Part shown: piece after piece, positions 4,927 through 49,686 of the stretch
Numbering within the stretch: the first letter of the stretch is position 1
Layout of the letters: each line of letters starts with the position of its first letter
NCBI GenBank assembly: GCA_963722075.1
Contig: CAVRJM010000001.1
Location: 640,001-704,000 of the forward strand
Reading direction: 5' to 3'
Origin: Candidatus Babeliales bacterium
GTDB lineage: Bacteria; Babelota; Babeliae; Babelales; JANWKD01
Length of the DNA stretch: 64,000 nt
Notes under the pieces: model-generated
What the model was told of the DNA's origin: nothing
The model's database searches: none
Seen by the model: only the letters and a program-made list of their open reading frames with translations
Translations under genes and position numbers: made by a program

Positions 4927-7900
4927 TGGTTTCTTAGTCTTATAGATTTCATCAAGCATATTTACCTCTTGTTGACACGCTTTCATTTTGCGGGCAAATT
5001 GTGAATCGTCATATAATTTTTGTTGATCTGCATTAAAATTTGCATATTCCATGCCGCCATCATTATATATGACCCTTTTATGCACATACAATTTTTGCAA
5101 TTCTTTGCCAATTCTACCGGCAAAATCATCAGGAAGAATATCACGGTCTTGCGTTAAGAAATCTTTTAGTTCTACAGAAACTTCATTATAGTGCCTAATA
5201 TAGCCTTTAGTATTAATTGATAAGTTCAAAGAATCAATGTACTTCTTAATCCGAGGAATATACACGGAGCACATAACCGCTTTAACCGTATTGAGTAATT
5301 GATTATATTGATTCTCTGAAACGCGTAATCTTCGTAACGTATTGGCAATAGATCTGCAAGAATTTGCATCTTGGCAAGCACAAATTTCTTGCTCTTTGGT
5401 ACGTACTAGATGAAGCCCACGTAACTCTGTTAGCTCATTCTTTGTAAATAAATCTGTGCCGCTATATTGATCATATAACTCATTAAAATCATCTTTATTT
5501 TTTGTATGTGCAAATTCTTGTAATCTAACTGCGAGTTGCTCCTTAGCATACTGTTTAAGAATATCAGCTCTTTTTTTACTACACGGCCAAAAATCTGGAG
5601 AGACTAATTTTTTAAGCCTATTTAAATCATAGTCACCAATAGCTTCTTCAATTGCTCGTTGTGCATTAAAAGTCAAATTCTCTATTGCTTGCTGTGGGCA
5701 ACTCAATTGAGTTGGATCACAACCCAATTCTATTAATGCATCTCTGATTTTTAACCTCTTAATCTGTTTCAATCTTTTAAAATTTCGTTTATTATCTTCG
5801 ATCAAATAGGTAAAAAAACGAACTGGAAACGCTGATTGTTTCATACAAAGATATTTAAATGCGTAATTTGATTGAATAAAATCTAATTTATTCTCTAATG
5901 CTGCTTCTAATTGATTTTTACAGAAACTTTGTATTCGAATTTCAAAATGTCCAAGAATATCTTTTCTCAATTTATCATCATATGGCTCTAGCCATTCAGC
6001 ATCGATGTTCATAAAATCCAGGAGATCATTATTTTCTAGTGCAGGTTCAAGGATAGTTTTTATTAAATCTTCCATTATTTTTATTCTTACACTAGAACTA
6101 TATTGAATATTATTATATAAATTAATTGCTCTACTTTTTAAGGTAAATTGTTCACTTTCTTCAAAGGATTCAAGGACCTCGTGTAAATCATTTAAATGAC
6201 GTGTAAAACCATTTCTGCCCGCCTTCTCAATCGCTAATTTATACAATAACTGCTCTAACTTATTAATACTTGGTGAATATGACAAATAAAATTGAGTATC
6301 ATTAAAAAAAGGATGCAAAATTAAACCCATTATTTTACTCGACCGACTAAAAAAACCACAACGTTTGTATTCTTTATTTATTTCATATCTATTAAGTATC
6401 TTAAATGATAAATCCATAGCCGCCAATTCGCCCGATTTAGGTGATGTTATGATATGATGATCTGCTGTTATTGTTATAATTTGCCCTTCCATTTGACCAA
6501 CTCTCTTTCGATCAGTATCAAAATCATACAGAATAATATTACCGCCATAGGTAGTAATAAAATCATTATTATCACTTTTTATAACTACTGTATTAGTATT
6601 GGGTAAGCAATAAGTCTTAGCTGCTACATTTATTCCTTGCTTTGAAAATGAAAATGATTTAATTAATTTAATTGGGTTGCTTGTTAAATCAAATAAAAAA
6701 ATATTAAAGCGATTCTTCGCCATTAACTGTTTGCCATCACTACTAAATGTAATTAAAGTAACCTCACCCTCTATAGGCAATTCTATTTCTTTAGTTACAA
6801 CTGCAAAATGGTCCTCGGTATCTGAAATTAATTCTGCAATAAGGATTTTGCCTGATTTTTGAGGAATTATTAAAATATTATCTGAATACGATTGAACAAT
6901 TGCGGTAGCTCCATTAACAGAAAATTTACCTAAGCACTTGTCAAACTTTCTTGAAAATAAAAGACATTCTTTCTCACTTGCAACTGCTATAATTTTTTTT
7001 CTTACTGGCATTACAAATTTATTGTTACATAAGTTTGATTTTTTATTAAAAAATCTATCTATCGAATAAAACCGAGTACAATGCGGTTTTTGTAAATTAA
7101 TAACTGTCAAAGCAACGTGAAAAATTCCACTATTTTGCAAAGTAAAAAGTTCCTCTCATTAAAGCGCCTCCACGGCCGGCGCAGCCGGCTTCACCCTACT
7201 CTCGCGAGGGGGTAAACCGCTTACCCAACGTTGACTGCTCTGTGAAGGCTTTCTTGGTTTGTAATCTACTATTTTTTTCTCCTGAACTTGTGGGGTTACT
7301 CGTTGATAAATTTCACTAAAAGCAAGCGCTGTTTTTCTAATCCACAGTTTAATTTCTCCATCTAAATGCACCTTAACAACAATAATATCCTTTGGGCGTA
7401 GAATTGTTTTCTGATGCGGAGTCAATTGAAAAATGCGATTGTGGTAAGTAATAGTAAAATCGTTCATAAGAATGCGAGTCTCTTGCATGCTGAATACATC
7501 GGCTAAGTCATAAGATTGAGCATCAGCATGTGCATTGCCTTGTTGAGTTGGAGGGACTTGGAATGCAGCATTATGCTTGGTGATAAAGTTACTCGCTCTT
7601 AGATAATTATTTGCAGCAGTTATTGATGATATGCCAGCAAGCCTCATCTCTTTAATAAGGCGATCTTGCATGGTTTGATTGCATCGTTCAACACGTCCTT
7701 TTGCCTGAGGGCTATGGGCATGTTCAATCTCAATGTCTATAGATTCGCAAGCACGCTCCCATTGAGTCTTTTTAATATCATCTTTATTATTCAAATTAAC
7801 ATGAAAAACAGATCCATGGTCTACGTAAAAAGTTTGAGGGATTCCATATTTCTCAATGTAATTTTTAGTTGCCGCCATTAAAGCAAATACTGATTCAGAT

Positions 7901-32761: not shown

Positions 32762-35440
32762 ATGCATTTAAAAAAAATTAGCACTTATTTTATTAGGTTA
32801 TTATTTTTATTGTTAATAAATAATAATCTAATAGCAATGGAAAGCCCTACTTCAATAAATACATTGCCTTATTATAAAAAAGAGCATTTAGAAGAATTAA
32901 AGAACAACAATATTCAACATCATACACCATGCGTTATTATTCTAGATGTCAAATTTGATGAAACACCCGAGCAATATAATATAGGGAACTTAACCTCAAC
33001 CCTCGCTGATGCAATTACATTAAAAATACCAACCATCGTTAGTTCATCAGTTCTTCATAATTTAATCGTAAGAAAACAACAAAAAGTTGATTCTAAACAT
33101 CCTGAAAATATAGATTTAATAAATAAAGCCAATAATTTAACAGAAGACGAATGGTTTTTATTTACCACCAGGTTAAGCAATTTTTTTATTCTTATTCCTA
33201 AATGGTATTTTGATATTTATGGAGATAATAAAGAGTTAGGTTTTGACCTATATAATCTTATTGGTGAGCCCACCGCATTACCTTCATCAAAAAACCTTGA
33301 TTTTACCAGCCTTATTTCTATAACTGATCTGCCTATTGATACAAACCAAACTGTTATTCTTGAAGCATTTAACGATATCTTTATAAAAAAACAAAAAAAA
33401 ACTGAAACTTATGTTCCAGAGAAAACACCATTCTGGGATTTTTTTGTTATTGGTCATGGAGATACCGATACAGCAATTGCTGGCGTTAAACCATTTATTT
33501 TTCGTAAAATTTTAAAATTTTTTAATGATTATATTGTAACTAACGTGGCTTACGTCACCTCATGTAACGCGGCTGGTAAAAACTTAAAACTTATACAATT
33601 TGCTAACACAGGTGCCGCGCAATTATTAAATTATATCTTAATTATAGGCGCCACAACTGATGCACCTGTATACGGACATATAGATTTAATAAGCTTTTTT
33701 GATGGTGCTGCTTCTTTAGAAGATAAAAGCAATAGCTTAGACAGATTGCTCACCAAAGTTCTGCCTGAAACAGAAATGGAATTGTCTCAATTTATTTCAA
33801 ATATTCCGCAAATATGGTTACCAGGAGGGTTAGGGTTTCAAACATATAATATTCATAATCGCATTGAGAACATTGGTTTAGTGAAAAATCTGGTACATGA
33901 AATTGAACATAAACCATTTGAAATTAATAAAAAACTTGCTGTTCTTATTTATCCATCAAAAATTAACGTACCAATGGAAGTTAATGTAGCAAGCACGCCC
34001 GTGCATTCTGAGGAAAAACGCGAATGGATATCATTATCGGTATCGTTTGGCGGACAGATTTTTGAAAAATATCCTACTTTCATATCAATGTTGCCGGGGG
34101 ATGCCATACATTTCTTTAAACATATAACGGTGGTAACACCTTCATTTGAACGTATGGGGCTCTTAACATTTATGAGAGATTCATTTTTAAATATTTCTGG
34201 TAGAGAAACAAAGAAAACAACCCTTATTGACACATTACATGGCAATAACGATTTTGAAGATATTTTAATGGCAGAAAGAAGAAAAAGGGTCAAAAGGGTC
34301 GGAAAAACAGCAATAAAAGAACCGCTTCATGAACTCGTAAATTTACCAAGCGATTTAGAATTAAAAAAAGTTATTATTGAGTCAAGCGGGAAATTGCTTT
34401 ATAATCCATCTGCCGAAACCGAACAGCAACAATTCTTATTTCATATTTATATTGCATTTGAATTTCAGGGAAATGCTTGGGAATTCACAGCAACTCAAGA
34501 CACCATTAAAAATGAACCTATAGGCTGGAATTTTAAAAAAATAGATGTATTGCAACATCAACAATATTATAACAAATTACAAAAAAAACTTGATTATCAA
34601 ATCCGTGAACGAGAAATCATACCTGTACCGACATTATTTAAGAAATTTGATTGGAATAAGTTTATTATCGTTGAGGCACTTAAATTAATACGCTCTACAG
34701 AAGAATTTAATAAGATTTCAAAACAACCCAAAATATACCCCGCATTAAATAGTTTTTTAAGAATCGTACGTGATCCTTCTCAAACATTCTATGCACAACT
34801 TTTTTCACCAAACATTGGTATCTTTGATGTTAATGAAGAAGTTAATAATTATCATTTATTTTCAACAAAAAAACAAAAACCAACAACAATTTTTAATATT
34901 ATTACCTGGTTAAGTTATTGGATCCAAATGCAACGTGAAGATTTTAAAAAACAGATTTTTTTCAGTAATCAATTACCATTGTATAATGATCTTTCTTCAA
35001 CATTAGAACTCAATAGATTACTTTCTGGTAGAATTAATATCCCCACAAAGGATACTTATCTTTTAGAAGAACTATTAAATCCAGAAATTGGCAAGCCAAT
35101 TATACTGGCACCTTTTATTGTTGAAATAACCCATTATCATGACACTATTTCATTTAATTTAGAATTTATTTTTAAAGAGCTTGGTTGGCAACTATCTACA
35201 AGCGTTTATAAAAAAGATAAAAGAGGATTGCCAGCTTATTATCCATGGGTTGTCAAACAAATCTCCGCTGAAGATGTTGCTCATAAATTTAATAGATACA
35301 AGCAACAAATCCTTGTTTATAAATTTCAAAGATATAAGCAGCAAATCGAAGAACCTCAAGAAAAAAAACCACAAAAATCGCTAAAGGACATTATTCTTAA
35401 AAAGTTAAAAGAATATAAGGAAAGTAGTAAAAGTGAATAA
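32762..35440 (+). CDS. Large secreted protein with putative clan CD-like cysteine protease domain; paralog of 46771-49686
   Basis: ATG after GGAG; signal peptide; WDFFVIGHG...VAYVTSCNAAG; shared blocks with the paralog such as PQ.WLPGG.GFQT. Confidence 0.7.
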   Translation: MHLKKISTYFIRLLFLLLINNNLIAMESPTSINTLPYYKKEHLEELKNNNIQHHTPCVIILDVKFDETPEQYNIGNLTSTLADAITLKIPTIVSSSVLHNLIVRKQQKVDSKHPENIDLINKANNLTEDEWFLFTTRLSNFFILIPKWYFDIYGDNKELGFDLYNLIGEPTALPSSKNLDFTSLISITDLPIDTNQTVILEAFNDIFIKKQKKTETYVPEKTPFWDFFVIGHGDTDTAIAGVKPFIFRKILKFFNDYIVTNVAYVTSCNAAGKNLKLIQFANTGAAQLLNYILIIGATTDAPVYGHIDLISFFDGAASLEDKSNSLDRLLTKVLPETEMELSQFISNIPQIWLPGGLGFQTYNIHNRIENIGLVKNLVHEIEHKPFEINKKLAVLIYPSKINVPMEVNVASTPVHSEEKREWISLSVSFGGQIFEKYPTFISMLPGDAIHFFKHITVVTPSFERMGLLTFMRDSFLNISGRETKKTTLIDTLHGNNDFEDILMAERRKRVKRVGKTAIKEPLHELVNLPSDLELKKVIIESSGKLLYNPSAETEQQQFLFHIYIAFEFQGNAWEFTATQDTIKNEPIGWNFKKIDVLQHQQYYNKLQKKLDYQIREREIIPVPTLFKKFDWNKFIIVEALKLIRSTEEFNKISKQPKIYPALNSFLRIVRDPSQTFYAQLFSPNIGIFDVNEEVNNYHLFSTKKQKPTTIFNIITWLSYWIQMQREDFKKQIFFSNQLPLYNDLSSTLELNRLLSGRINIPTKDTYLLEELLNPEIGKPIILAPFIVEITHYHDTISFNLEFIFKELGWQLSTSVYKKDKRGLPAYYPWVVKQISAEDVAHKFNRYKQQILVYKFQRYKQQIEEPQEKKPQKSLKDIILKKLKEYKESSKSE

Positions 35441-35567
35441 ATAATTTGCGTCATCGCCTCATTTTTATTACACTTAGATAATAATTATTTTTAACATATT
35501 TTAAGGTCGAAAACGCATTTAAATATCAAATTCAAAAGGTTTGATTAGAATAAGATTAATTTTGTAG

Positions 35568-35717
35568 CTGGATTGCTTAAGCAAGCCATGTCCGCCAAAG
35601 CCCCATCGGGCAAAGGCTGGATCGCAATGACGTTCTTTAAAATTCTTGGGTCAGTCGTCATTTCGAGCGTATCCGCCGTCGCCAAGAGCTATATCGGAGA
35701 TGAGTGCGGGATCCAGG
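35568..35717. repeat. REP/RPE-like inverted pair, each arm with a nested hairpin module
   Basis: CTGGATTGCTT...TCGCAATGAC and GTCATTTCGAG...GGGATCCAGG; modules at 35587-35621 and 35672-35702. Confidence 0.8.
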
Positions 35718-35767
35718 CTTAATTGTTTATCATTTAATGCGTTTATCACTGGATTTTAAGGTTTTCT

Positions 35768-37342
35768 ATGCAAGATTCATGGATCGTGTTGTTACCCCCG
35801 TTGGTAGTCCTTTGTTTGGCATTTATAACGAAAAGAATAATCCTTTCTCTTTTTGTAGGTATTGTTTTAGCCTCGGCCATAAAGGCAGATTTTATTATAC
35901 TTCCAACCATAGCGGTAATTAAAAATGCATTCATGAACCAGCTCATCAACTGGGATAATATTTATATTTTTTCATTTTTAATTGCTATCGGAATAATTAT
36001 ATCGTTAGTAACGTTAATTGGCGGGACACAGGCATATGCCCGGCTCATTAAAAAAAAGATTAAAACGGCTCGCGGTGCTGAATCGGCAAGCATTGTACTA
36101 TCGCTACTCTTATTATTTGATGACTTTTTTAGCAGTATCACGGTAGGCTCTATTATGCGGCCATTAACCGAGCATTTCTCGATACCGCGCGCTAAATTGG
36201 CTTTCTTAATTGATTCTATGGCGGCCCCATTAGTGGTAATAATGCCTATATCAAGTTGGATTGCTACCATGACTATGCAACTGGCTAAAGGCGGCGTTTC
36301 AGCAACAATGCAACCAGGTACCCTTATCATGAGCGAGCCATATTCGTTATACTTAAAAATAATCCCCTTTATTTTTTACTCCTTTATTTTGATAGCCTCA
36401 GTCATTTTTATTGTCCAATTTCGTATTTCATATGGACCTATGAAAAAGCATGAATTAGAATGCTATAAAGAGAATATCTCGAATGCCCCGATAAATTTGG
36501 CAGTAACAAAAAAGGGCAGTATTCTTGATTTCCTCATTCCAATGGGATTACTACTAGGCACTATTTTTGTTGCTATCTTATATGCAGGTAATTATCATCT
36601 TTTTGGAGGTAATAATTCATTTGTAATGGCTTTACAGCAAACTAATATCTTTTTAGCGCTTTTTATGGGAAGCACCATTTCGCTAATTATTTCTTTGGTC
36701 TTCTTTTTAGTAACACAGAAAGTTTCAATTAATAAAATACCCCTGTTGGTGAAGGAAGGCTTTTTATTAATGTATTCTTCCGTTACTATTCTCTTTTTTT
36801 CATGGGCTTTTAGTAATCTTCTTTTGGTAGATTTGCATAGTGGGGATTATTTGGCACAACTATTAAGTGGAAATATACCGCTCTTTTTACTACCTGCCCT
36901 CTTTTTTATAGTTTCTGCTGTTACTTCAATTGGCATTGGATCATCCTGGGGTACTATTGCTATTATGGTTCCGCTGGCTATTCCATTACTGGTACATCTT
37001 ATGAATATTCAAGTACCCGCCATGCCTCTTGATGTTCCCTTACTTTTTCCTACTCTTGGCGCCATATTTGCCGGAGCCGTAGCAGGAGACCATATTTCTC
37101 CGCTTTCAAGCACCACCGTAATGTCGGCTATGAGTAGCGGAACACCGTTGGCGCATCATGTACAAACGCAAATTCCCTATGCGCTTCCATCAATTATTTC
37201 ATCTATTATCGCCTATATTATTGCAGGTCTCTTAGTGCAGAAATCAATTGTCCTCAGTGCTATTCTTTCTTTAACCGTGGGGATAATCATTTGTTTTATT
37301 TTTCTATTAGTGCTTAATAATTGGTACAAAAAAAGAATCTAA
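35768..37342 (+). CDS. NhaC-family (Na+/H+ antiporter-like) transporter
   Basis: FDDFF, KLAFLIDS.AAP, PISSW, GSSWGT, GDHISPLS motifs; many TM segments. Confidence 0.85.
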   Translation: MQDSWIVLLPPLVVLCLAFITKRIILSLFVGIVLASAIKADFIILPTIAVIKNAFMNQLINWDNIYIFSFLIAIGIIISLVTLIGGTQAYARLIKKKIKTARGAESASIVLSLLLLFDDFFSSITVGSIMRPLTEHFSIPRAKLAFLIDSMAAPLVVIMPISSWIATMTMQLAKGGVSATMQPGTLIMSEPYSLYLKIIPFIFYSFILIASVIFIVQFRISYGPMKKHELECYKENISNAPINLAVTKKGSILDFLIPMGLLLGTIFVAILYAGNYHLFGGNNSFVMALQQTNIFLALFMGSTISLIISLVFFLVTQKVSINKIPLLVKEGFLLMYSSVTILFFSWAFSNLLLVDLHSGDYLAQLLSGNIPLFLLPALFFIVSAVTSIGIGSSWGTIAIMVPLAIPLLVHLMNIQVPAMPLDVPLLFPTLGAIFAGAVAGDHISPLSSTTVMSAMSSGTPLAHHVQTQIPYALPSIISSIIAYIIAGLLVQKSIVLSAILSLTVGIIICFIFLLVLNNWYKKRI

Positions 37343-37433
37343 TAATTTTTGTACTCTAGTAGCATTTTGTGTATAATTATCGTTATTGTTGCTATTAAAA
37401 GTAAATAACAGTATTCATTACTCAAAGGATTAT

Positions 37434-37850
37434 ATGAAAAAAATAGCTCTATTTATTATGCTTGCCTCCCTAATGACTCTCAATATGCACGCGGAAACTC
37501 CTTATACGCCCTACCAGGTATCTACTACCTCAACACCCATAATTCCTGACCATGCATTACCAAGCAGTAGCTTGCGCGTAATTGGCTTAGTAGCAGCAGG
37601 TGGTGGTATCCTTTGTGTATGTACCGCAGTTTTGAAAAATCTTTTTGATAAAGTGTTTGAAGAGAATATAGGCGCAAATGAAGCTACTTTAAAACAGAAA
37701 CTTATTACTGCAGTACGCTATACCCTTGGATGCTCAGCTGCTGTAGCAGGAATTATAGTAGGATTGGTTACCATAGCTAATGCGGATACACCAAACTTCT
37801 TACTAGTAAATAAAGCTCCTACCATAGCTCCATCAGTAACAACTAACTAA
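37434..37850 (+). CDS. Hypothetical membrane protein (signal + 2 TM)
   Basis: ATG after AAGGA; similar layout to 37974-38321. Confidence 0.6.
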   Translation: MKKIALFIMLASLMTLNMHAETPYTPYQVSTTSTPIIPDHALPSSSLRVIGLVAAGGGILCVCTAVLKNLFDKVFEENIGANEATLKQKLITAVRYTLGCSAAVAGIIVGLVTIANADTPNFLLVNKAPTIAPSVTTN

Positions 37851-37876
37851 AATAATAATTTGCTTCAATAGTATGT

Positions 37877-37906
37877 AGGCCAAAGAAAATTCTTTGGCCT
37901 TTTTTT
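37877..37906 (+). terminator. Rho-independent terminator
   Basis: AGGCCAAAGA-aaat-TCTTTGGCCT followed by T tract. Confidence 0.8.
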
Positions 37907-37973
37907 CTTGAACTCTGCACCTTTTTAGATTAATGTATAAACAATTAATATCATCAATAAAAAAGAGCTGTCA

Positions 37974-38321
37974 ATGAAAAAAACTATTTTATTATTTCTG
38001 TTATTATCCATTTTAATCCCTAGCCATTTATTCTCAGTTAGCCCGATTTCAAACAATTCGCTCATGTATGATGCACGTTGTGTGATATCAACAACAATAA
38101 GTACCTCTCTTGGTATTTTAGGAATATGGATCATCAAAAAAAGTATCGATAAGATGCTTGATACGTGCTATGAAAATGAATCAATACCCATGAAAGAAAA
38201 GCTCGTAGCGTTGAGCGCTGAATCGTTTGCAACATTCATAGGATTACTCTGTAGCGTAGGCGGTAGTTTATTAGTAGTTATGGATTCCTACAAAGTTAAA
38301 TGTAAAGGCACCAATTACTAA
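37974..38321 (+). CDS. Hypothetical membrane protein (signal + 2 TM), probable paralog of upstream gene
   Basis: KKSIDKMLD...NESIPMKEKLV vs KNLFDKVFE...NEATLKQKLI. Confidence 0.6.
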   Translation: MKKTILLFLLLSILIPSHLFSVSPISNNSLMYDARCVISTTISTSLGILGIWIIKKSIDKMLDTCYENESIPMKEKLVALSAESFATFIGLLCSVGGSLLVVMDSYKVKCKGTNY

Positions 38322-38323
38322 CC

Positions 38324-39628
38324 TTATTTTCTTCTTCGTGCATCTAGTATTGATTTTTCAATATCGTTCGGTTCTTTAGGCAACTGTTCGCTTAAACAAA
38401 TAGCGCCATCTGGAACAATCCAATAATCATCTTCAATACGAACACCTATTGATTCTTCAGGAATATAAATGCCGGGTTCGATGGTAATAACATCGCCTTC
38501 TTCAAGCGGTTGCGCATAATCACCAACATCATGCACTTCTAATCCTAGGAAATGCCCAATACCATGCAAGAAGTAATGTCCATAATGACGGTCTTCAAGA
38601 TATTTTTTTGCTAAATGATTTAATGATTTATCGGGATAATTTTTATTAGAAAGCCACATACCGGGTTTAGCAAGCGATGCTATATATGTTTGTGTTTCCA
38701 AGACCAAGGAATATATTTCTCTTTGGCGCGCTGAAAAAGTTCCTGAAACCGGATAGGTTCTAGTTAGATCAGCACAATAATGATTGTAACGAGCACCAAT
38801 ATCTATTACTACCAGATCACCTGAACTTATGATTGCTTCATTTTTTATATAATGCAAGATCGTACCATTTTTACCCGTTGCAACAATGCTAGTAAATGCA
38901 GCACTCGAGCCTGATGCAATGAAGGTATATTCTATTGCTGCTTGTACTTCACATTCCTTTTTACCCGGTTGAAACACTGAAAGCGCTGATTCATAAGCAT
39001 CGACTGTAATTTCAATTGCTTTATATAAATATTCTATTTCTCGTTTACTTTTTTTTCTACGCATCTGAGCAACTACCAATGAAATATCAATAAGAATCTC
39101 ATTAAACCATGGATTTTGTTGGGCAATACGTTGTAATACAAAGCGTTGTTCCATATAATCTGCGCCGTTGGTTGGATTCAACGTAAAAATTGTATACCCT
39201 TCAGCTGCCCATTTTTCTAGTAACTGCAACAAATTCTCATATTCTCGATGAGTAAAAAACGGATTACATTGGTAACCAGTACACTGATTGCCCAAATATT
39301 CAATTGAAGATAGCTGTAGTTCCTGTGCTTTTTGTTTATCTGGCGCAATAGCATCAGCTACCCATTTTTCGCGTTCTTTACCAAAATTAGGAACAAATAA
39401 GGTAGAAGAACCTTCTTCAACATCAATACTTACTACCGCAGCCGGCTCTTCAACACCCGTAAAGTAATAAAAGGAAGCATCTTGCCTAAATGGCCAGCCA
39501 TCGCGCTCAAAATTGGCAAACAAAAGAACTTTCGCCTTTTTAATATGCTTATATTGTTGTTGTATTAGCGTAATTAATTTCTGACGCCGCTCTGCAAAGA
39601 GAAAAAAATCAATTTTTTTATATACCAT
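38324..39628 (-). CDS. pepP: Xaa-Pro aminopeptidase (M24B)
   Basis: FRQDASFYYFTG, LHY, IDIG..YCADLTRT, HGIGHFLGLEVHD, TIEPGIY, RIEDD. Confidence 0.92.
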   Translation of the reverse strand: MVYKKIDFFLFAERRQKLITLIQQQYKHIKKAKVLLFANFERDGWPFRQDASFYYFTGVEEPAAVVSIDVEEGSSTLFVPNFGKEREKWVADAIAPDKQKAQELQLSSIEYLGNQCTGYQCNPFFTHREYENLLQLLEKWAAEGYTIFTLNPTNGADYMEQRFVLQRIAQQNPWFNEILIDISLVVAQMRRKKSKREIEYLYKAIEITVDAYESALSVFQPGKKECEVQAAIEYTFIASGSSAAFTSIVATGKNGTILHYIKNEAIISSGDLVVIDIGARYNHYCADLTRTYPVSGTFSARQREIYSLVLETQTYIASLAKPGMWLSNKNYPDKSLNHLAKKYLEDRHYGHYFLHGIGHFLGLEVHDVGDYAQPLEEGDVITIEPGIYIPEESIGVRIEDDYWIVPDGAICLSEQLPKEPNDIEKSILDARRRK

Positions 39629-39684
39629 AAAAAGCCCTCATGTAATAGTAGATGTTACTAATTATCGCATGAGGGCTTTTTTTT
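39629..39684. terminator. Terminator-like hairpin downstream of the ankyrin remnant
   Basis: AAAAGCCCTCATG...CATGAGGGCTTTT. Confidence 0.6.
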
Positions 39685-39714
39685 GCAAAGTACGTTATTT
39701 GTTTTTTAATATTT

Positions 39715-39880
39715 TTATTTATCGGTTAAGGCATCTTGTGATCTACGTAAAGCATCATATTTCTCAAACAATTCCACAAATGCCTTAGCGTTGAATAACT
39801 GAGCATACGTTCGCGGCGTGAATATTGAACCTTCCTCCCCTTGAAAAAATAAATCCGGATTTGCCCCATGTTGCAATAAT
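39715..39880 (-). pseudogene. 3' remnant of an ankyrin paralog
   Basis: LLQHGANPDL...TPRTYAQ...AFVELFEKY matches the C-termini of neighbouring paralogs; begins abruptly at a terminator. Confidence 0.7.
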
Positions 39881-39920
39881 AAAAAAGCCTCATGAGCTAT
39901 ATTACTCATGAGGCTTTTTT
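39881..39920 (-). terminator. Terminator after 39937-41238
   Basis: AAAAAAGCCTCATGAG...CTCATGAGGCTTTTTT. Confidence 0.75.
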
Positions 39921-39936
39921 AATTTCTTAGCGTATC

Positions 39937-41238
39937 TTAATTATTCTTATATTCATTGAACAATTCTACAAATGCTTGTTTATCTGCATCATGTTCGGCA
40001 AACTTCAGTGGCGTAGTAATTATTTCGTCACCACCATCTTCTGTTTCATATGCTTGATCCATATTAGCTCCTGCTTTAATTAAAAATCGGGCTAATTCTT
40101 CATCATCAGTAACAATAGCAAATGCTAGGAATGGCATCCTAATATCTTTGTAATCGCCAATAACCAATGAGTTAGCACTTAATCCTGCATTTACAAGCTG
40201 TATAATAACATTAGAATAAACCTCGGCACCCCGCATACCATGAGTTGGCATATACCCTGGTATATAAAATTTAATATGTAAATTATTATCACAATCATTA
40301 GTATCAAACGCTCCATTATTCAAAAGATGTAAGGCACTATTAACGTTTGAACTACTAAGCGCTTTTGATAATAAAGTCTCCGTTTCTGAATATTTATTAA
40401 AACATAATGCCTGGTTAACATTTAGTCCGTTTTCTAAAAATAACTCCAGGGATTCTTGCCATGCTTCATTGAACGTTTTAAGCTGTTCATCTCCTAACTT
40501 GCCTCTAGATGCAGGTTTTTCATTCATCAATGTTAAAAGCTTTTTAACTAGGCATTTAAATTCGGGTAACAATTCAGGCTTCTTGTTAGCAGCATTAGCA
40601 TTTGTTTTTAATTCTTTCTTCAAATCTGATATCAATTCTAATACCATTCCATTTTTCATTGCAGCTAATAAATATTTCAATAAAGCGCCCATAGTAGATT
40701 CATCAACAACAAGTCGATAATGCGCCCTGCTTGATAGTGCAAAATTATGTAAAGCAATCATGGAATCAGCTAATTTACCTCCTTTAGCAACTCCCAATAA
40801 AATCTCATACACTATTTCAGCGGGTAATACATCATTTCCTATCGGCTGTTCATTTTCTATCGAATCTAATAGAATAGTGCTTTTATTGCATAGTGGATTT
40901 GGCTTTTTGATCATTTTTACATAAGAGATTGATTCCGGTACAGCATTGCCAATAAGCTGCCTTTCTTCTTTATTAACCTTTTTGGCTAAAGCTGTTCCTA
41001 CAACACCCAATTGCAATGCATTGGTTACTTGTGAGCCTTGCGGATGGTGTAACACATCGGTTTTAGAATCATTTGCTTGCGTTCGTCTCTGCCTCTGAAC
41101 AATAACAGGAACTTCGTCCTCACTTCTTGTACTTTCAGAAATTCCACTTACAATTTTGTTCCATAACCACATTGGAGAAGTATGGTGCATTATATTGATA
41201 GCAAATAATGTAATTAAAATAAAAATACGTTTATTCAT
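39937..41238 (-). CDS. Secreted F-box-like/ankyrin protein (array member)
   Basis: Signal-like N-terminus; LPAEIVYEILL motif; ankyrin-like LARFLIKAGANMD. Confidence 0.75.
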   Translation of the reverse strand: MNKRIFILITLFAINIMHHTSPMWLWNKIVSGISESTRSEDEVPVIVQRQRRTQANDSKTDVLHHPQGSQVTNALQLGVVGTALAKKVNKEERQLIGNAVPESISYVKMIKKPNPLCNKSTILLDSIENEQPIGNDVLPAEIVYEILLGVAKGGKLADSMIALHNFALSSRAHYRLVVDESTMGALLKYLLAAMKNGMVLELISDLKKELKTNANAANKKPELLPEFKCLVKKLLTLMNEKPASRGKLGDEQLKTFNEAWQESLELFLENGLNVNQALCFNKYSETETLLSKALSSSNVNSALHLLNNGAFDTNDCDNNLHIKFYIPGYMPTHGMRGAEVYSNVIIQLVNAGLSANSLVIGDYKDIRMPFLAFAIVTDDEELARFLIKAGANMDQAYETEDGGDEIITTPLKFAEHDADKQAFVELFNEYKNN

Positions 41239-41262
41239 GTTTTTTCCTTTAATAATAATAAC

Positions 41263-42255
41263 TTAAAAATTATTTAATTTGTTGGAATATTGGTCAAATA
41301 GTGCTATAAATTCTTGCGCCTCATTTTGTTGAGCATATTTATAGGGTGTAACAAGTTTCAGCTCACGATCCCTATATTGAAGATGAGGATCAGCGCCATT
41401 TTTCAATAGAAATTCTGCTAAGTCTAGTAATTCGTACTCTACCGCATAACTCAGAAATGGGACACCTCCCCATTGAGTTTCATTCATTATGAGATTTCCA
41501 TTGGCCGTTAATCCTTTTTCAATTAATACTTTAAGTTGAGTCGCTGTAGCTGTAGGATTACTATACCGAGTATCTATTCTACAAGCATAATTAACCCCAG
41601 AATTTTTTCCATCTGCACCTTGCTCAAGAAGCTTTACTGCTAAATTCTGACAATCTAAATACAATGCTTTTGCTAGCAATGTCATTTTAATCATCTTCTC
41701 GTTTTCCCGCCGCATAGTCTCGACGTCTGTTAACCCCTGTTCATACAATACATAATTTTTATTAAGGCCTTGCTCTATTAACTTTAGAGCTAATTCTTGA
41801 AATTCCTGAATACCTTTCTTGTTGCTTTTTCTCACTCCACTTAACTTAATTAAGATTTCTAAATCTTTGAATATAGGTACTAACCTATGCTTATGTGCCA
41901 ATACATTTTCTGCCTCCTGAGCAGCTTGATGGTTTGATATAGAGGATAGTAATTTTTTTCGTATAGCCGCTCTGGTATGTTCATCCTTAATAAGATTTTT
42001 ATTTTGAGCACAGGTACACGCAAGATTATTTAATGCTTCTAAGATTTTTACCAAATTTTCGCCCGTTTTTATTTGCGGCTCTATTACATGCAACATTACC
42101 TTCGTTAATAGTTCCGGCGGTAATTCCATAAGAAAACACTTATTATTGATAGGTTTAGGACTGAAATAATCAACCATTTTTTGCCACATAGGATAGCTAT
42201 ACTGCATTCCACTCATAGCTATAGTAATAAATAAGATAAAAATACGTTTATTCAT
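41263..42255 (-). CDS. Secreted F-box-like/ankyrin protein (divergent array member)
   Basis: LMELPPELLTKVMLHV...LNNLACTC; LAEFLLKNGADP. Confidence 0.75.
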   Translation of the reverse strand: MNKRIFILFITIAMSGMQYSYPMWQKMVDYFSPKPINNKCFLMELPPELLTKVMLHVIEPQIKTGENLVKILEALNNLACTCAQNKNLIKDEHTRAAIRKKLLSSISNHQAAQEAENVLAHKHRLVPIFKDLEILIKLSGVRKSNKKGIQEFQELALKLIEQGLNKNYVLYEQGLTDVETMRRENEKMIKMTLLAKALYLDCQNLAVKLLEQGADGKNSGVNYACRIDTRYSNPTATATQLKVLIEKGLTANGNLIMNETQWGGVPFLSYAVEYELLDLAEFLLKNGADPHLQYRDRELKLVTPYKYAQQNEAQEFIALFDQYSNKLNNF

Positions 42256-42305
42256 ATGAGACCCCCTTTTTAAAATATTAATAACTGTAATTATATATTA
42301 CTATT

Positions 42306-42334
42306 ATAATACAATTGTTTTCACATAGGGTCAA
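42306..42334 (-). promoter_or_regulatory. Putative sigma70 promoter, homologous to the region upstream of 45183
   Basis: TTGACC-N17-TATTAT; leader block TTTAAAATATTAATAACTGTAATTA repeated near 45195. Confidence 0.55.
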
Positions 42335-42432
42335 CAGGGGGGAAGGCCATTTTCTCTGGAAACAGCTATAAAACAGTATATTTTCATTATTTTATGAGTT
42401 AAAGTGTGCTTTTTTGCATATCAGAAGATTTA

Positions 42433-42663
42433 GAGCCTATCTGAAAACTCGGGGCTGTTGAAAAAATAAATAAAAAAAATAAACCCCGAATTACGCAGGA
42501 TAAAGATTCAATTCGGTGGGTTGTTGAAAGAACATTTTCTTGGATAAATCGATTCAGACGTGTTTCCATTCGTTATGATAAGCTATCTAAAAACTTTCTT
42601 GGATTAGTTCAATTTGCTTGTCTAATCATTGTTTTTAGAAAAATTTAGTTTTCAGACAGGTTC
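42433..42663 (+). mobile_element. 231-bp internally deleted IS5-family (IS1031-like) element
   Basis: TIRs GAGCCTATCTGAAAACT / AGTTTTCAGACAGGTTC, TTA duplication on both sides, residual transposase C-terminus RWVVERTFSWINRFRRVSIRYDKLSKNFLGLVQFAC. Confidence 0.85.
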
Positions 42664-43847
42664 TTATTGAATAGTTCCACAAAAGCTTGCTTATCTGGAT
42701 CATCTACCGCTTGCTTTTGCGCAAATTCCCTCGGTGTCATAGTTATTCGCTCGCCACCTGACTCTGCAGTATATTCTTCATCAATAGTAGCTCCTTTTTC
42801 AATTAAAAAACGGGCTAAGTCAAGGTGATTTGTAGCAATAGCAAATACCAAAAATGGGTCATTAAACCCTTTATAAAAACCGTAAGGACCGGTCACACAT
42901 GAATTTGGACTTAAGCCCGCATTTACAAGCTGTTTAATAGCATCGGCATAAAATTCGCTCCGATACATATCATCTCCTAAATTATATCCTGGAACAAAAA
43001 AGATATGATGACACTGCAAATCATTTTTACCGTTCACACCCTTATTTAACAAATATATTACGCTATCAATGTTTGAACAAATAAGTGTTTTTGATAAAAA
43101 AGTTTCTGCTTTTTCGTTTTCATAAGATATAACATGATTAATGTCTAAACCATTTTGTAATAATAATTTTAGTGATTGTTGCCATGAGTTATTCAAACCT
43201 CTAAGCTTCTTTTCTTGGCTACCATTATCTCTAGGTCTTTCCTCAATAAATATTAAAAGCTTTTTAATTAAAAACTGAAACTCCGGTAATAACGTCGTCG
43301 TTGCTTTTGATTTTTGGTCGCGCATTGTTTTTTGTAAATCAGGTAGTGTGTTATTTTGTAAAGAAGCCAATAGTTGTTTTAATAAATTGCTCATTGTGCA
43401 TACATCAATAACACATCGATAATGAGCTCTACAGGAACGTGCAAAATTGGTTAAAGAAGTCATAGAATCAAATAACTTATTGCCTGTAGCAGTTTGTAAT
43501 AAAATCATCATAACTATTTCAGAAGGAAATATACCATCTCCTATGCACTGCTCTTTTTCGTGTTGATCTAATATGATTTTACTTTTACCGGACAATGTGT
43601 TGTTCGCTAAAGTCACCCCTAAAACAATCATATTTTCCGAATTATTTAGGCGTAGAGCTGGATTTACTTGTGGATCCCATCGCCACCGATGTGGTAACGA
43701 AAATTCTTTTTGTGGCTTGAAGGTAAGGAGTTTTTCGAATTTCTCCCGTAAAAACTTAGGAGTTTCCCATAACCACATTGAAGCACTATACTGGAATGAA
43801 CCAGTAGTGATTGCAACAAATAAAATAAATATATACTTATTCACCAT
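42645..43847 (-). CDS. Secreted F-box-like/ankyrin protein (array member; C-terminus supplied by IS relic)
   Basis: GTG start; IFPSEIVMMILL...LTNFARSCRAHY; LARFLIEKGATID. Confidence 0.75.
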   Translation of the reverse strand: MVNKYIFILFVAITTGSFQYSASMWLWETPKFLREKFEKLLTFKPQKEFSLPHRWRWDPQVNPALRLNNSENMIVLGVTLANNTLSGKSKIILDQHEKEQCIGDGIFPSEIVMMILLQTATGNKLFDSMTSLTNFARSCRAHYRCVIDVCTMSNLLKQLLASLQNNTLPDLQKTMRDQKSKATTTLLPEFQFLIKKLLIFIEERPRDNGSQEKKLRGLNNSWQQSLKLLLQNGLDINHVISYENEKAETFLSKTLICSNIDSVIYLLNKGVNGKNDLQCHHIFFVPGYNLGDDMYRSEFYADAIKQLVNAGLSPNSCVTGPYGFYKGFNDPFLVFAIATNHLDLARFLIEKGATIDEEYTAESGGERITMTPREFAQKQAVDDPDKQAFVELFNKNLSEN

Positions 43848-43905
43848 TTTTCCCTATTTAATTACCATAATAAAATATGATGCGTACTATATTGAAGCTT
43901 ATAAA

Positions 43906-45183
43906 TCACTCTTCATTAATCTTATAATGATCAAACAAATCAATAAAAGCTTGTTTAGCAGGATCATTTTCAACTTCATTTTGAGCAAATTGCCTCGGCG
44001 TCATATTTTCTATGACTCGTGCATCCTCAGCAGTATATTTTTGATCAATATTAGCCCCGTTTTCAATTAAAAAACGCGCTAAGCTTAAGCTATCTATCGC
44101 TATAGCAAATGCAAGAAATGGTTCTTTAAGATTTTTTTGGATACCAAAACCCCCTGTCACTAATGCATTCGGGCTTAATCCGGCATTTACTAACTTCTTA
44201 ATAGCATCTTCATAAAATTCACCTCGATTGCCCGCAAGACCATTTCCTGGCTGATATCCTGGAACATAAAATGTATAATAATCCTGCAAATCAACTTTAT
44301 GATTTAATAGAAGTAAGGCTCCTTCAACATTTGATAGAAGAAGCGCTTTTGATAATAAAGTTTGCGCTTCATTACGTTCGTCGTAATATAAAACGTGATT
44401 AATACTTAATCCATTCGGTAAGAGTAATTCTAATGACTCTTGCCATGATTTATTCAAAATTCTAAGATTCTTTTCTTCGCTACCTATCTTACCTTTATTT
44501 TCAGGTCTTCCATTTATAAGTGTTAAAAGCTTTTCAATTAAAAATTTAAATTCAGGTAATAATGGCGGTTTTTCATTAACAACTATTTTTTCTTTTAAAT
44601 CAACTAACGCACATTCTTTCATAGAACCTAATAAACGCTTTAATAGATGACTCATCGTGCTTTCATCAATAATAAATCGATAATAGGCCCTACCAGCTCG
44701 TGCTAAACTGGTTAAAGAACTCATAGAATCAAATAATTCATTGCCCTTAGCAGCCTGAAGTAAAATCATCATAACTATTTCCGCGGGGATTACATCATTT
44801 CCTACTGGCTGCTCATTTTCTTTAATAGCTAATTGAATACTGCTTCTATTACACAGCAAATTAAATTTTGCATCAGAATTTGGTGCTTGTTCATAATTAG
44901 AATCTAATTCTTGTTTAGTTTTTTCTTCACGCAGTTTCTTAGCTGAAGCTACCCCCAAAGCAACCATATTTTCCGGATTATTTAATTGTAGAGTTGGATT
45001 TACTTGTGAATCCCATCGCCACCTATGTAGTATTTGAACTTCGTTATCTACTTCACGACTGGTAAATAATTTTTCGAATTTCTCCCGTAAAAACTTGGGT
45101 GTTTCCCATAACGAAATTGGAGAAGTATGCTGTATTGCATTGATAGCAAAAAATATGCTTAAAATAAAAATAATTCTATTCAT
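43906..45183 (-). CDS. Secreted F-box-like/ankyrin protein (array member)
   Basis: VIPAEIVMMILL; LARFLIENGANID; strong similarity to neighbours. Confidence 0.75.
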   Translation of the reverse strand: MNRIIFILSIFFAINAIQHTSPISLWETPKFLREKFEKLFTSREVDNEVQILHRWRWDSQVNPTLQLNNPENMVALGVASAKKLREEKTKQELDSNYEQAPNSDAKFNLLCNRSSIQLAIKENEQPVGNDVIPAEIVMMILLQAAKGNELFDSMSSLTSLARAGRAYYRFIIDESTMSHLLKRLLGSMKECALVDLKEKIVVNEKPPLLPEFKFLIEKLLTLINGRPENKGKIGSEEKNLRILNKSWQESLELLLPNGLSINHVLYYDERNEAQTLLSKALLLSNVEGALLLLNHKVDLQDYYTFYVPGYQPGNGLAGNRGEFYEDAIKKLVNAGLSPNALVTGGFGIQKNLKEPFLAFAIAIDSLSLARFLIENGANIDQKYTAEDARVIENMTPRQFAQNEVENDPAKQAFIDLFDHYKINEE

Positions 45184-45309
45184 GTGCTTTTCTCTTTAAA
45201 ATATTAATAACTGTAATTAATCTATTGAGGATAATAATACCATATTTTCAAATAAGTTCAAAAGGCGGGGCTTTTTGGTCCCAAAAATAGTTGAAAATAG
45301 TAAATTTAG

Positions 45310-46695
45310 CTATTTTATAAGTTTCTGTACTAATTTATTTATTTTACCGGCACCCTGCAAAAGCACCAAATCATCAGGCACAATATGGGCATCGAGCTCT
45401 TTTTTTATATGATAAAATTCATTGTCAAAGGGAACATATTCAACGCTAAAAGAAGGCTGTAGTTTCTTTAATTCTTGCACAAAACGCTGTGCCGTAATAG
45501 TAGGTATGGGTTGTTCGCTGGCCGCATAGATATCAGTTACGATCAAATTATCGATTGGAAGCTCTCTAAATGTTTCTAAAAATAACTGCCATAATTTATC
45601 AGTACGTGTATAGCGATGCGGTTCAAATATGAGCGTTAGTTTATTTTTTTTACGTTTTGCTGCTACCATAACTGTGTTCTTAATTTCTTCCGGATGATGC
45701 CCATAATCATCAAACAACTCAGCACCTTTATATAAACCATTATAGCTAAAGCGCCGCTCAACGCCTTTAAAGGTAGTAAGCCCTTCTTGAATTTGCGCAA
45801 ATGGAATTTTTAATTCACGTGCTACGGCAATTGCAGCCAGTGCATTAAGTACATTATGGCGCCCGGGCATATTAATTTTGATAACTCCCAATTGCTCCTG
45901 CTTATAATACACCGTAAAAATAGAATGATCAGGATATAATGCTACATCATCAGCATAAATATCTGCCCATGATTCTAAACCATATTTAATGGTTTTTATA
46001 TGCGGCAGGGGCAATAACGAACGCACCTGTTCATTATCGATGCATACGATTGCAGTACCATAAAAAGGTAGATTTTCTAAAAATTGTTTAAAAGTATTTT
46101 TAATATCCTCAATATCGTGATATGTATCTAGATGTTCTAAATTAATATTAGTAACAATGGCGATTGTAGCTTGCAAATGAGTTAATGATCGATCACTTTC
46201 ATCAGCTTCTGCTACTAAAAAATCCCCTGCACCATACTGTGCATTGGTAGAGATTGTTTTAAGCCGCCCACCTATTATTACCGTAGGATCTTTTTTAGCT
46301 TCAATCAATATATGAGAAATGAATGAAGTAGTTGTGGTTTTGCCATGGCTTCCGGCAATAGCAATGCTGTATTTCGTGCGCATTAATTCTGCTAGCATTA
46401 AGGCGCGTGAAATAGTTGGTATATTGCGCTGCTGCGCAGCAATAATTTCAGCATTAGTTGCTTGAATGGCAGAAGAATATACTAATATATCAATAGCTGC
46501 TGATTTGCAATACACACTATTATTACCCTCAACAATAGTGCATCCTAATTTTTCTAACTCCTTAACACTTTGCTGATCAATATCTGCATCACACCCCGAA
46601 ATGGTATATCCTTGATAGCGTAATATTTTTGCAATACCACTCATGCCAATACCACCAATGCCCACAAAATGAATATGAATTTCTTTTCTATACAT
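45310..46695 (-). CDS. murC: UDP-N-acetylmuramate--L-alanine ligase
   Basis: HFVGIGGIGMSG, GSHGKTTT, EADESD, DDYGHHP, HRYTRT. Confidence 0.96.
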   Translation of the reverse strand: MYRKEIHIHFVGIGGIGMSGIAKILRYQGYTISGCDADIDQQSVKELEKLGCTIVEGNNSVYCKSAAIDILVYSSAIQATNAEIIAAQQRNIPTISRALMLAELMRTKYSIAIAGSHGKTTTTSFISHILIEAKKDPTVIIGGRLKTISTNAQYGAGDFLVAEADESDRSLTHLQATIAIVTNINLEHLDTYHDIEDIKNTFKQFLENLPFYGTAIVCIDNEQVRSLLPLPHIKTIKYGLESWADIYADDVALYPDHSIFTVYYKQEQLGVIKINMPGRHNVLNALAAIAVARELKIPFAQIQEGLTTFKGVERRFSYNGLYKGAELFDDYGHHPEEIKNTVMVAAKRKKNKLTLIFEPHRYTRTDKLWQLFLETFRELPIDNLIVTDIYAASEQPIPTITAQRFVQELKKLQPSFSVEYVPFDNEFYHIKKELDAHIVPDDLVLLQGAGKINKLVQKLIK

Positions 46696-46770
46696 CAAAA
46701 TTTCCTAAATTCTTGTTACTTATTATTGTATTAAAAATAGCAAAAAATTAGGATTAGAGAAAAAGTTAAT

Positions 46771-49686
46771 CTAAGATTTATCTATAATTTCTTTATAGTG
46801 TTTAAAATTGTTATGCAGGGTATTCACATCCGATGCTTGCACCTTCCATGGGATAGGCACATTTAATGCTTTTGGTTTAAGACTTGCTTCTAGTTTCCAC
46901 GCTTTATTATTATATTCAAATTCTATTGTCACCATTAATTCTTTTGGTAAAGCATGTATCGAAAGGATTACATTTTCTATTTCAAATTGATTTACATTTG
47001 AAGGTAATAATTTTTCTAAATCAGAAAACCTCAATTCGTTATTATAAAGACGATTCAACTCTAAAATATAGGAAAGATCATTAAGGCCAATCCCATTTTT
47101 TATAATAAAAATTTCTTTAGTTAAAACCGTGGTGCGATTAGTAATGAATTGCTTTAAAAATTGAATAATATTACTAAATAAAAATCCTGTTGGATCATCA
47201 ATTGTTAATTCATGAAATATTCTTGCTTCTTTAATAATTGAAACAGTTGGTTTTTTAGGTAGCTTCAAATTGATCGTCTTATACATTAATTGATTCAAAA
47301 CAAAAACTAAAATACTTTCTGTATCGGCATGCTTCTTTTCTAACTCTTTATATAGTTTATCTGATTCAACTGGATCAATGAAAAGAAATTCTGCTGCATC
47401 TAAAGCAACATTTTCTAATTTATTTAAAACAAACTGCGCCATATTAAAATAATAACCTGTTTTTAAAGAGAGTATTCCCTTTAATAAATAACTTTGTGAC
47501 ATATATATTTCTCTATAGGTTGCTGCCCATGAAGACACGTCTACCGCTGGAATACCCTTAGCAAGTAATCGTTCAGATATATGTTTTATTTTTAATTCCA
47601 AAGCATTATTCAGTAACTTATAAAATTCAAATTTGCTCTCATTACTTTTTAACAGCTCTAAAGAATTTATAAAGGTTGAAAGAAGCGGAAAATAATCTTT
47701 ATTATCTTTTATAAAGATCCATTCTTTAGGTTTCAAATTTAAAATAGTGTCATAATTTATTAGTAAATATGGTTGAAATTTTTGTGCATAAAAATATTTT
47801 TTTGTTGGTGCTAATTCTTGCTGATAGTGTCTTTGAGATAATTTTTCTAATAACTGAGTAAATTGTTGTTTATGGGTGCTAACCTCTTTAGATTTAAAAT
47901 ACCACGCATATGGTTCTGCATTTAACGATTCTTTTGATACATTAAATTGCCAAGCACTATTTTTATATTTAAAACTTAGTCTTATTTTATATCCTAACTG
48001 CTTATTTCCTTTTGTTTTAATAATAACTTTTTTTAATTTTATCTGTTCGCTTTGTAATGCTTGTTCTAATTCGTGTGGTATTTCAATACTTTTTTGTATT
48101 CGTTGTTTTTCAATAATATTTCTAATATCATTGAAACCTTCTAAGTTATTTATAAGCACCTTTTTTTTACTAACTCTTCCGGCGATATTAAAAAATGCAT
48201 CACGAATAAAATGTAAAACGCCACTTTCGGTTTTTTCAGTCGCTAGAGAACTTTTATGGACAATCACTTTTTGTAGTTGCTGTATGGTATTACCATGAAC
48301 CATGGAAATAAATTGTGGATATAAATAGTTGTAGATTGGTTTAATTGATAGATCAGACCATTCAAATTTCTCTTCAGATAGTAAGGATAAATTTTGTGGA
48401 TAAACGTGTAAAGGAACTGTGATTTGTAATGGGTACATAAGAATTGCCATCGCATCTTTTACAATTATTGGTTTTTTTGATAATTCATGGGTCCTTTTTT
48501 TAACTAATCCAATCGAGATTACGTAATTATTAAGAGCAACAGTTTGAAACCCAATCCCACCTGGTAACCACACTTGCGGTAAATTTGATATATATTCTGG
48601 TTCTTTAATTATTAAATCAGTTACCAATTTATTAAGCGAATCAGATTTATTGATAAGGTTTTTGGCATTGTTAAAATAATTACCTAAATAACCTGACAAT
48701 CTCATCCTTTGTGTATACAGAAGCTTAGTTGGAGAATCATCAATGGATTCTACCACCAAAATATAATTAAATGACCGACTAATACCACTTTTTCTCCATT
48801 GCACTAAATCTAAATTATTCCCTCCAATACTACATGTTGATAAGTTAACAACATTAGTAATAATCATATCATTAAAAAATTGTAATAATTTATTTAACTG
48901 AGCTGGTAATAGCCCCGCGATTTCCAAAGCTCTCATATCAGCTGAACCATGCCCATTGATATAGATATCCCATATTGTTGAGGGGCTTTCTTTCTTTTGC
49001 TTAAAAAGTGATATAATTGAAGGTAATACATTGATACCTTGATAGCGATCTATTTGATCAATTACCATTTCTAAATTCTGTTCTGTTGTTAATGGCAGAA
49101 TATACGTTATCTCTTCCAAAACAGCTCTATTAAAATTATGTAAAGGATAATTAGCGGGCACTAAAAAAAACATTGCTTGATCTGGGTTCAGTACATAAAG
49201 TTTCCAATCAGTACTTGTTAGGTTAACTGAAGATAAAAATTGATGCTCTTGTTCCCAAGATTGTTCATAGGGTTTTAACGAAGTAAGAGTTTCTTCGATA
49301 ATTTCTTTTACCCCAGGATATGATTCCATTCCTGCTAAACTTTTTTTAATTTCTTCAATGGTCTTTAAAGCATCCTGATATAAAGCAAAGTTTTTAAAAT
49401 AACTGCCAATAGATACTATTGTTTGCTTTCTTCTTAAAAAATTAAGCAAAATCGATTTACTTACTAAAATAGGAAATGAATTACTTTGTAACCCGGCAAT
49501 AAAATTTGCCGTAATTGACCTTACTACAATATCTTTCTCAGATTCACTATTAAATTGATCAATAAGAATTAACAATGGCTCATGATGTTTTTCAGTTGTT
49601 TGCTTTATTTCAGATGTAGGTTTTTCCATACCAACTAGAGAAAAACTCGATACTATCAAAAAGCTAAAAATATAGAAAAATCTCAT
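46771..49686 (-). CDS. Large secreted protein with putative clan CD-like cysteine protease domain; paralog of 32762-35440
   Basis: Signal peptide; WDIYINGHG...VVNLSTCSIGG; duplicated C-terminal domain. Confidence 0.7.
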   Translation of the reverse strand: MRFFYIFSFLIVSSFSLVGMEKPTSEIKQTTEKHHEPLLILIDQFNSESEKDIVVRSITANFIAGLQSNSFPILVSKSILLNFLRRKQTIVSIGSYFKNFALYQDALKTIEEIKKSLAGMESYPGVKEIIEETLTSLKPYEQSWEQEHQFLSSVNLTSTDWKLYVLNPDQAMFFLVPANYPLHNFNRAVLEEITYILPLTTEQNLEMVIDQIDRYQGINVLPSIISLFKQKKESPSTIWDIYINGHGSADMRALEIAGLLPAQLNKLLQFFNDMIITNVVNLSTCSIGGNNLDLVQWRKSGISRSFNYILVVESIDDSPTKLLYTQRMRLSGYLGNYFNNAKNLINKSDSLNKLVTDLIIKEPEYISNLPQVWLPGGIGFQTVALNNYVISIGLVKKRTHELSKKPIIVKDAMAILMYPLQITVPLHVYPQNLSLLSEEKFEWSDLSIKPIYNYLYPQFISMVHGNTIQQLQKVIVHKSSLATEKTESGVLHFIRDAFFNIAGRVSKKKVLINNLEGFNDIRNIIEKQRIQKSIEIPHELEQALQSEQIKLKKVIIKTKGNKQLGYKIRLSFKYKNSAWQFNVSKESLNAEPYAWYFKSKEVSTHKQQFTQLLEKLSQRHYQQELAPTKKYFYAQKFQPYLLINYDTILNLKPKEWIFIKDNKDYFPLLSTFINSLELLKSNESKFEFYKLLNNALELKIKHISERLLAKGIPAVDVSSWAATYREIYMSQSYLLKGILSLKTGYYFNMAQFVLNKLENVALDAAEFLFIDPVESDKLYKELEKKHADTESILVFVLNQLMYKTINLKLPKKPTVSIIKEARIFHELTIDDPTGFLFSNIIQFLKQFITNRTTVLTKEIFIIKNGIGLNDLSYILELNRLYNNELRFSDLEKLLPSNVNQFEIENVILSIHALPKELMVTIEFEYNNKAWKLEASLKPKALNVPIPWKVQASDVNTLHNNFKHYKEIIDKS

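Follow-up and report, generated by a model that had tools for sequence, protein, structure and literature searches.

We analyzed a 64,000-nucleotide stretch (hereafter, the window) of the genome of a Candidatus Babeliales bacterium (assembly GCA_963722075.1, contig CAVRJM010000001.1, positions 640,001 to 704,000; genome of 1.47 Mb, 35% GC and 99% completeness). The window carries two genes, gene 1 and gene 2, whose products are predicted to be large, exported cysteine peptidases of clan CD. The Babelota (TM6/Dependentiae) are described as parasites that live inside protist cells and secrete many proteins (PMC6561590, PMC4776705, PMC4378268). The two genes, 11 kb apart and oppositely oriented, do not make up an operon; their GC content (30.2% for gene 1 and 28.7% for gene 2) is below that of the genome (34.7%). 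Their features are listed in Table 1.

Table 1. Predicted features of gene 1 and gene 2, in window coordinates.
Feature	Coordinates	Strand	Details
Gene 1 (P0001)	32762..35440	+	892 residues; signal peptide, caspase-fold domain, beta-rich domain 2, tail
Signal peptide, gene 1	32762..32836	+	about residues 1-25; predicted Sec, heuristic only
Caspase/haemoglobinase-fold (clan CD) domain, gene 1	32912..33865	+	residues 51-368, predicted
His232, predicted catalytic His, gene 1	33455..33457	+	CAT; within G-H-G right behind a core strand
Cys268, predicted nucleophile, gene 1	33563..33565	+	TGT; right behind the next core strand
Domain 2, gene 1	33854..34621	+	about residues 365-620; conserved, beta-rich
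Degenerate repeat of the domain 2 C-terminal half, gene 1 tail	34853..35422	+	domain-2 profile, domain E = 5e-5; self-similarity
Gene 2 (P0002)	46771..49686	-	971 residues; paralog, layout as gene 1
Signal peptide, gene 2	49630..49686	-	about residues 1-19; predicted Sec, heuristic only
Caspase-fold domain, gene 2	48520..49593	-	inferred by homology (BLASTP to gene 1; catalytic-domain profile, E = 2.6e-65, gene 2 being a row of that profile and not itself folded)
His246, predicted catalytic His, gene 2	48949..48951	-	from sequence
Cys285, predicted nucleophile, gene 2	48832..48834	-	sole Cys of the protein
Domain 2, gene 2	47812..48534	-	about residues 385-625
Degenerate repeat of the domain 2 C-terminal half, gene 2	46792..47244	-	domain E = 4e-6

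The original prediction described the products as two large, secreted paralogs, each with a His-Cys dyad. The motifs and the His and Cys codons are indeed found where it placed them, the two residues being 36 positions apart in gene 1 and 39 in gene 2. As judged from the sequences, the two genes are paralogs: their products are 35% identical over 425 residues (E = 2e-75), with weaker matches at both ends, and their tails resemble each other (E = 3e-7). The start of gene 1 was set at the ATG that has a GGAG a short way upstream, five codons downstream from the TTG (32747) chosen by the open reading frame (ORF) finder. Its product contains two Cys residues, one of which is Cys268.

Neither protein gave a meaningful match in a Pfam scan, and gene 1 gave none against the PDB sequences. 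The catalytic domain of gene 1 was modeled with a mean predicted local distance difference test (pLDDT) score of 89. In the model, His232 and Cys268 (model residues 182 and 218) stand directly behind strands 174-181 and 210-217, as had been proposed, i.e. the His precedes the Cys, and the two cap core strands beta3 and beta4, respectively, at the C-terminal end, the placement characteristic of clan CD (PMC4357240). The clan CD layout also held in the fold searches: Foldseek against the PDB gave clan CD chains only, among the matches listed, and the best 12 rows of the VIA search were all clan CD chains, with alignments that span the entire domain. The six-stranded sheet with its helices is taken from these fold matches, not from the strand order in the coordinates. 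Between core strands 2 and 3 the domain has about 100 inserted residues, and the model has extra strands (81-85 and 91-96) whose pairing is not readable; C11 enzymes have a nine-stranded, extended sheet. The best viral rows were giant-virus caspase-like proteins (best E = 6e-3), and the named ESM Atlas neighbours were C13 and C14 at 0.88, which we treat as a lead only.

The conservation of the dyad was assessed on 132 unique proteins from 113 loci, chosen by domain-profile score and not by motif (139 alignment rows). The His is found in 126 of the 126 rows with a residue at that position (13 of 139 being gapped) and the Cys in 127 of 127 (12 of 139 gapped), at a median pairwise identity of 22% and background frequencies of 2.1% for His and 1.0% for Cys. 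Since the sample was blind to the motif, this conservation exceeds chance, and the claim that the dyad persists at low overall identity was thus upheld. The His is preceded by Gly in 123 of 126 rows and followed by Gly in 124 of 126; a Ser/Thr directly before the Cys is conserved, as is the His-Gly pair. Among 35 further proteins or fragments that were held out, mostly weak scorers, 31 cover the site and 30 of these keep the dyad, the other four being fragments that miss it. Seven more members on metagenome contigs all keep both residues. The alignment used for folding (118 rows, after removal of six short ones) was filtered for His and Cys, so that its 118/118 dyad is not independent evidence; in this pre-filtered alignment the two residues are the only zero-entropy columns, followed by the flanking Gly. 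The best conserved charged positions are Asp62 (81% acidic) and Asp300 (86% acidic). Note that a single member, L160:829-3255 (+) in genome G170, has Tyr in place of the catalytic His; its alignment is less certain, and its sequence makes it a candidate inactive paralog.

As judged from the predicted structure, the family very probably adopts a caspase fold and relies on Cys-His catalysis. Because caspase-like domains in secreted bacterial proteins are already a known theme (PMC3482391), we regard it as a new family within a known clan rather than a new kind of system. We found no description of it in the literature listings searched; it may figure as an unnamed cluster in the supplements of the Babela and Chromulinavorax papers. 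The Babela paper lists C11 (two), C19 and C48 peptidases and does not use the word caspase (PMC4378268); the Chromulinavorax paper lists C11 and C65 (PMC6561590).

By sequence comparison, gene 1 and gene 2 are members of a large, unnamed, Babelota-wide family. The source genome encodes four members: the two described above, a 669-residue protein and a 457-residue protein without domain 2. All four are rows of the searching profile, the third having been found beforehand by tblastn (E = 3e-8); the next match in that genome has an E value of 0.2, and reversed ORFs scored no better than 0.03. A five-sequence profile matched in 137 of 261 Babelota genomes, and the 118-sequence profile in 167 of 261, including 128 of 189 near-complete genomes and 17 of 21 families. 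The latter gave at least 474 matches with the best eight per genome scored, a figure that does not translate into copy numbers. The distribution is patchy with local expansions, from 0 to 14 copies per genome, the maximum being the 14 distinct member ORFs, many of them in tandem, of genome G244. Of the members looked up by name, one is a "hypothetical protein" and the rest are nameless.

In a quick tree, gene 1 and gene 2 are sisters on long branches, with a modest support of 82 in the Shimodaira-Hasegawa-like approximate likelihood ratio test; the two other paralogs of the genome are placed elsewhere, and clades mix host families. This pattern fits an old duplication with repeated gain and loss. 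Three short, divergent members (358-466 residues) lack domain 2 and have Asp or Glu two positions before the Cys (Cys-2): L002:1226-2596 (-), L127:1111-2508 (-) and L159:1126-2199 (+). They are possibly the form nearest to other clan CD enzymes. In genome G108, of the same genus, a homolog (L020:546-2505 (-)) is split over two overlapping ORFs of 336 and 334 residues; the frame changes near G runs, at the border between the catalytic domain and domain 2, and reflects either a real split or an assembly error.

Domain 2 is confidently modeled and beta-rich. It occurs in 112 of 115 complete members, from which its profile was built, and may be a short beta-helix with a beta-meander as its cap, as judged from the model. 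A Foldseek search with it gave no match, and the VIA search, dominated by the terminal helix, gave weak similarity to beta-helices and XRCC4-like heads. The half-copy in the gene 1 tail has a low pLDDT. In Pfam scans, 40 extension segments gave four ankyrin matches (two proteins), four leucine-rich repeat (LRR) matches (three proteins) and no enzymatic domain, and nine of 33 whole proteins contain ankyrin repeats, which brings the fusions to 11 proteins with ankyrin repeats and three with LRRs. Most members (77 of 115) end within 450 residues of the Cys; in the 27 long C-terminal tails, Pfam found ankyrin repeats, LRRs and a single HEAT match below threshold, and nothing else. Those of L016, L018, L036 and L023 (400-560 residues) seem to be helical and match no Pfam family above its cut-off; a minority of members could have cargo domains concealed in such tails.

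Whether the proteins are "secreted" was judged with a hand-made signal-peptide heuristic, not with SignalP, and this part of the original prediction stands to that extent: both genes pass. Gene 1 has a basic N-region, a hydrophobic 9-mer at residue 11 (mean Kyte-Doolittle hydropathy 2.9) and no later transmembrane stretch; in gene 2 the 9-mer lies at residue 4 (mean 2.6). The heuristic is passed by 100 of 116 members, by 271 of 540 long ORFs of the source genome and by 2 of 31 control ORFs from the ribosomal cluster. By this measure, signal peptides are enriched in the family, yet common in the genome. The genome also has two secretin genes (PF00263), so that a predicted Sec signal and a secretin, as expected for a type II secretion substrate, are both present. 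In Babela, no secretion system other than type II is reported (PMC4378268).

We then compared the family with the named families of clan CD. C13 (legumain, asparaginyl endopeptidase and PIGK; PF01650; 4awb, 4aw9, 5h0i, 7wld) is 8-11% identical to it. The window proteins have no PF01650 match in the Pfam scan; across the phylum, four of the six Pfam C13 matches fall on family members, all weakly, the best reaching 22.7 bits against a curated cut-off of 22.8 (23.2 with neighbouring stretches). The Arg-His of the C13 S1 pocket, at the start of helix 1, is not conserved: the corresponding family columns (75-78), mapped by secondary structure only, are mostly Gly-Ala-Ile/Val-Thr/Ser. Moreover, the family has some 100 residues inserted behind the second strand, and its accessory domain is predicted to be beta-rich, whereas that of C13 is the helical, C-terminal LSAM domain. 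PIGK and the plant asparaginyl ligases share the fold, which raises the possibility that the dyad acts as a transpeptidase, ligase or isopeptidase instead of a plain hydrolase. We regard this as improbable: identity to these enzymes is about 10%, no partner subunits occur among the conserved neighbours, and hydrolysis is the usual reaction of clan CD.

C11 (clostripain; PF03415; 6n9j, 6nag, 6mzo, 9cip) is likewise distinct. The Pfam scans gave no PF03415 match, and hhalign gave a probability of 0.4% between the family profile and six Babelota C11 proteins, the template alignment being shallow. Behind the last core strand, C11 has a helical subdomain and the family a beta-rich domain. In C14 (caspases, metacaspases and MALT1; PF00656), the L4 specificity residue stands at Cys-2: caspase-7 has Gln184 two positions before Cys186, and MALT1 and TbMCA2 have an Asp on L4, presumably with the same spacing. 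In the family, by contrast, this position is not conserved (the 118 rows show 18 different residues, with Ser in 27, Gln in 10 and Asp in 7). C14 has no counterpart of the signal peptide and domain 2, and PF00656 is absent from the families listed in the Pfam scans of the window proteins and members. A metacaspase-like ORF with His-Gly and Asp-Ala-Cys motifs, L124:225-1562 (+) in genome G021, is unrelated to the family. With CHAT/separase-like proteins (8tl0, 7zoq, 5mz6), the differences are the predicted secretion and the lack of any conserved defence-gene neighbourhood seen; no CHAT match was displayed in any Pfam scan.

The remaining comparison concerns C80 (MARTX and TcdA/TcdB cysteine protease domains; PF11713), which, like the family, combines a clan CD dyad with predicted secretion by a bacterium that associates with a host. 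The domain could then be activated by inositol hexakisphosphate (InsP6), and autoprocessing would release a C-terminal effector in the host. This is very improbable, even more so than the ligase reaction. Indeed, the beta-flap of C80 replaces helices alpha4/alpha5, whereas in the gene 1 model the stretch from beta5 to beta6 contains helices (259-267, 274-282 and 291-296). No conserved basic column suggests an InsP6 pocket: the best Lys/Arg column reaches 58% and is Trp in gene 1, as judged from columns alone and not from a 3D surface. The C80 domain is embedded in a large toxin, unlike that of the family, in which the tails are mostly short and the long ones carry only repeats; C80 also gave lower fold scores. 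Thus, of the original interpretation, the clan CD fold is supported by prediction and the C80-type autoprocessing is not.

A predicted caspase-type domain with a near-invariant His-Cys dyad and a likely export signal points to secreted enzymes that cut host proteins. We therefore favour, with about as much belief as doubt, the reading that the family consists of clan CD cysteine endopeptidases, likely exported and likely acting on protist host proteins by cleavage at specific sites. The signal peptide would take the protein to the periplasm through Sec, and a type II secretion system or outer-membrane vesicles may carry it on to the vacuole or the host cytoplasm. Given the position of the dyad at the ends of core strands 3 and 4 in the predicted fold, His232 would activate Cys268 for its attack on the peptide bond, by the mechanism of legumain, clostripain and caspases. 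Domain 2 may select substrates or regulate the active site, as may the ankyrin or LRR repeats that some members carry. The P1 preference would differ between paralogs, since the family varies at the residues that form the S1 lining in other clan CD enzymes. A host-interaction role is tempered by the lack of the family in 61 of 189 near-complete genomes, which shows that it is dispensable or has diverged there beyond the reach of the profile.

Between the two genes lie four tandem paralogs on the minus strand (39937-45183; 330-433 residues) whose N-termini resemble signal peptides and whose C-terminal parts match ankyrin weakly, only one of the four passing a Pfam cut-off, and a gene that looks by eye aminopeptidase-P-like (38324-39628). 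Near the window start are an ankyrin-repeat protein (2424-4124 (-)) and a weakly beta-propeller-like protein (4906-7140 (-)). The aminopeptidase would suit a nutritional role, in which the same secreted peptidases digest host proteins broadly and the peptides are imported by a bacterium that can synthesize few amino acids itself. A varied S1 would also suit a digestive panel, and the Chromulinavorax paper reports that this organism has no complete metabolic pathway and reads its secreted peptidases as biopolymer degraders (PMC6561590). Strict P1 specificity is, however, general in clan CD enzymes (PMC4357240), the ankyrin and LRR fusions and the conserved domain 2 fit targeting better than bulk digestion, and no transporter is a conserved neighbour in the short flanks. 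We consider this role unlikely, while ranking it first among the alternatives.

The tandem ankyrin-like genes bear on a further alternative, somewhat less likely still: the proteins could be clostripain-like maturases that process, in the periplasm or at the surface, the bacterium's own exported proteins (e.g. these ankyrin proteins) or themselves. A Sec signal by itself leads no further than the periplasm, the best VIA match is a secreted Bacteroides C11, and clostripains are implicated in surface-protein processing (PMC3482391). Members with an intact N-terminus have no lipobox, however, and a housekeeping pattern belongs to the true C11 enzymes: PF03415 genes occur in 257 of 261 Babelota genomes (with as many as 11 matches, of which some are tandem or lie inside long ORFs), two of them, separate from the family, in the source genome (G000:C1:1182342-1183517 (-) and C1:1262772-1263506 (-)). 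The contrast between near-universal C11 and a patchy, expanding family favours host interaction over housekeeping.

In its boldest and rather doubtful form, the host-directed reading would give the Babelota a caspase-like effector arsenal of their own: a new clan CD family, joined to a beta-domain whose fold may itself be new, that has expanded as much as 14-fold, diversified its P1 pockets and acquired ankyrin/LRR modules for aiming. Cleavage would fall on specific protist proteins, possibly those of the host's lysis, mitochondrial or cell-death machinery, and would serve to remodel the host cell and set the moment of its rupture. The families of clan CD are few and mostly have distinct specificities and activation tricks; the present one, with several hundred profile matches, adds a candidate that Pfam, NCBIfam and PDB sequence searches had missed. 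Its accessory domain without explanation and its variable S1 positions may make it a source of new protease specificities. Secreted proteins of the Babelota are mostly unannotated, and the family offers a concrete enzymatic effector candidate for this whole phylum of protist parasites.
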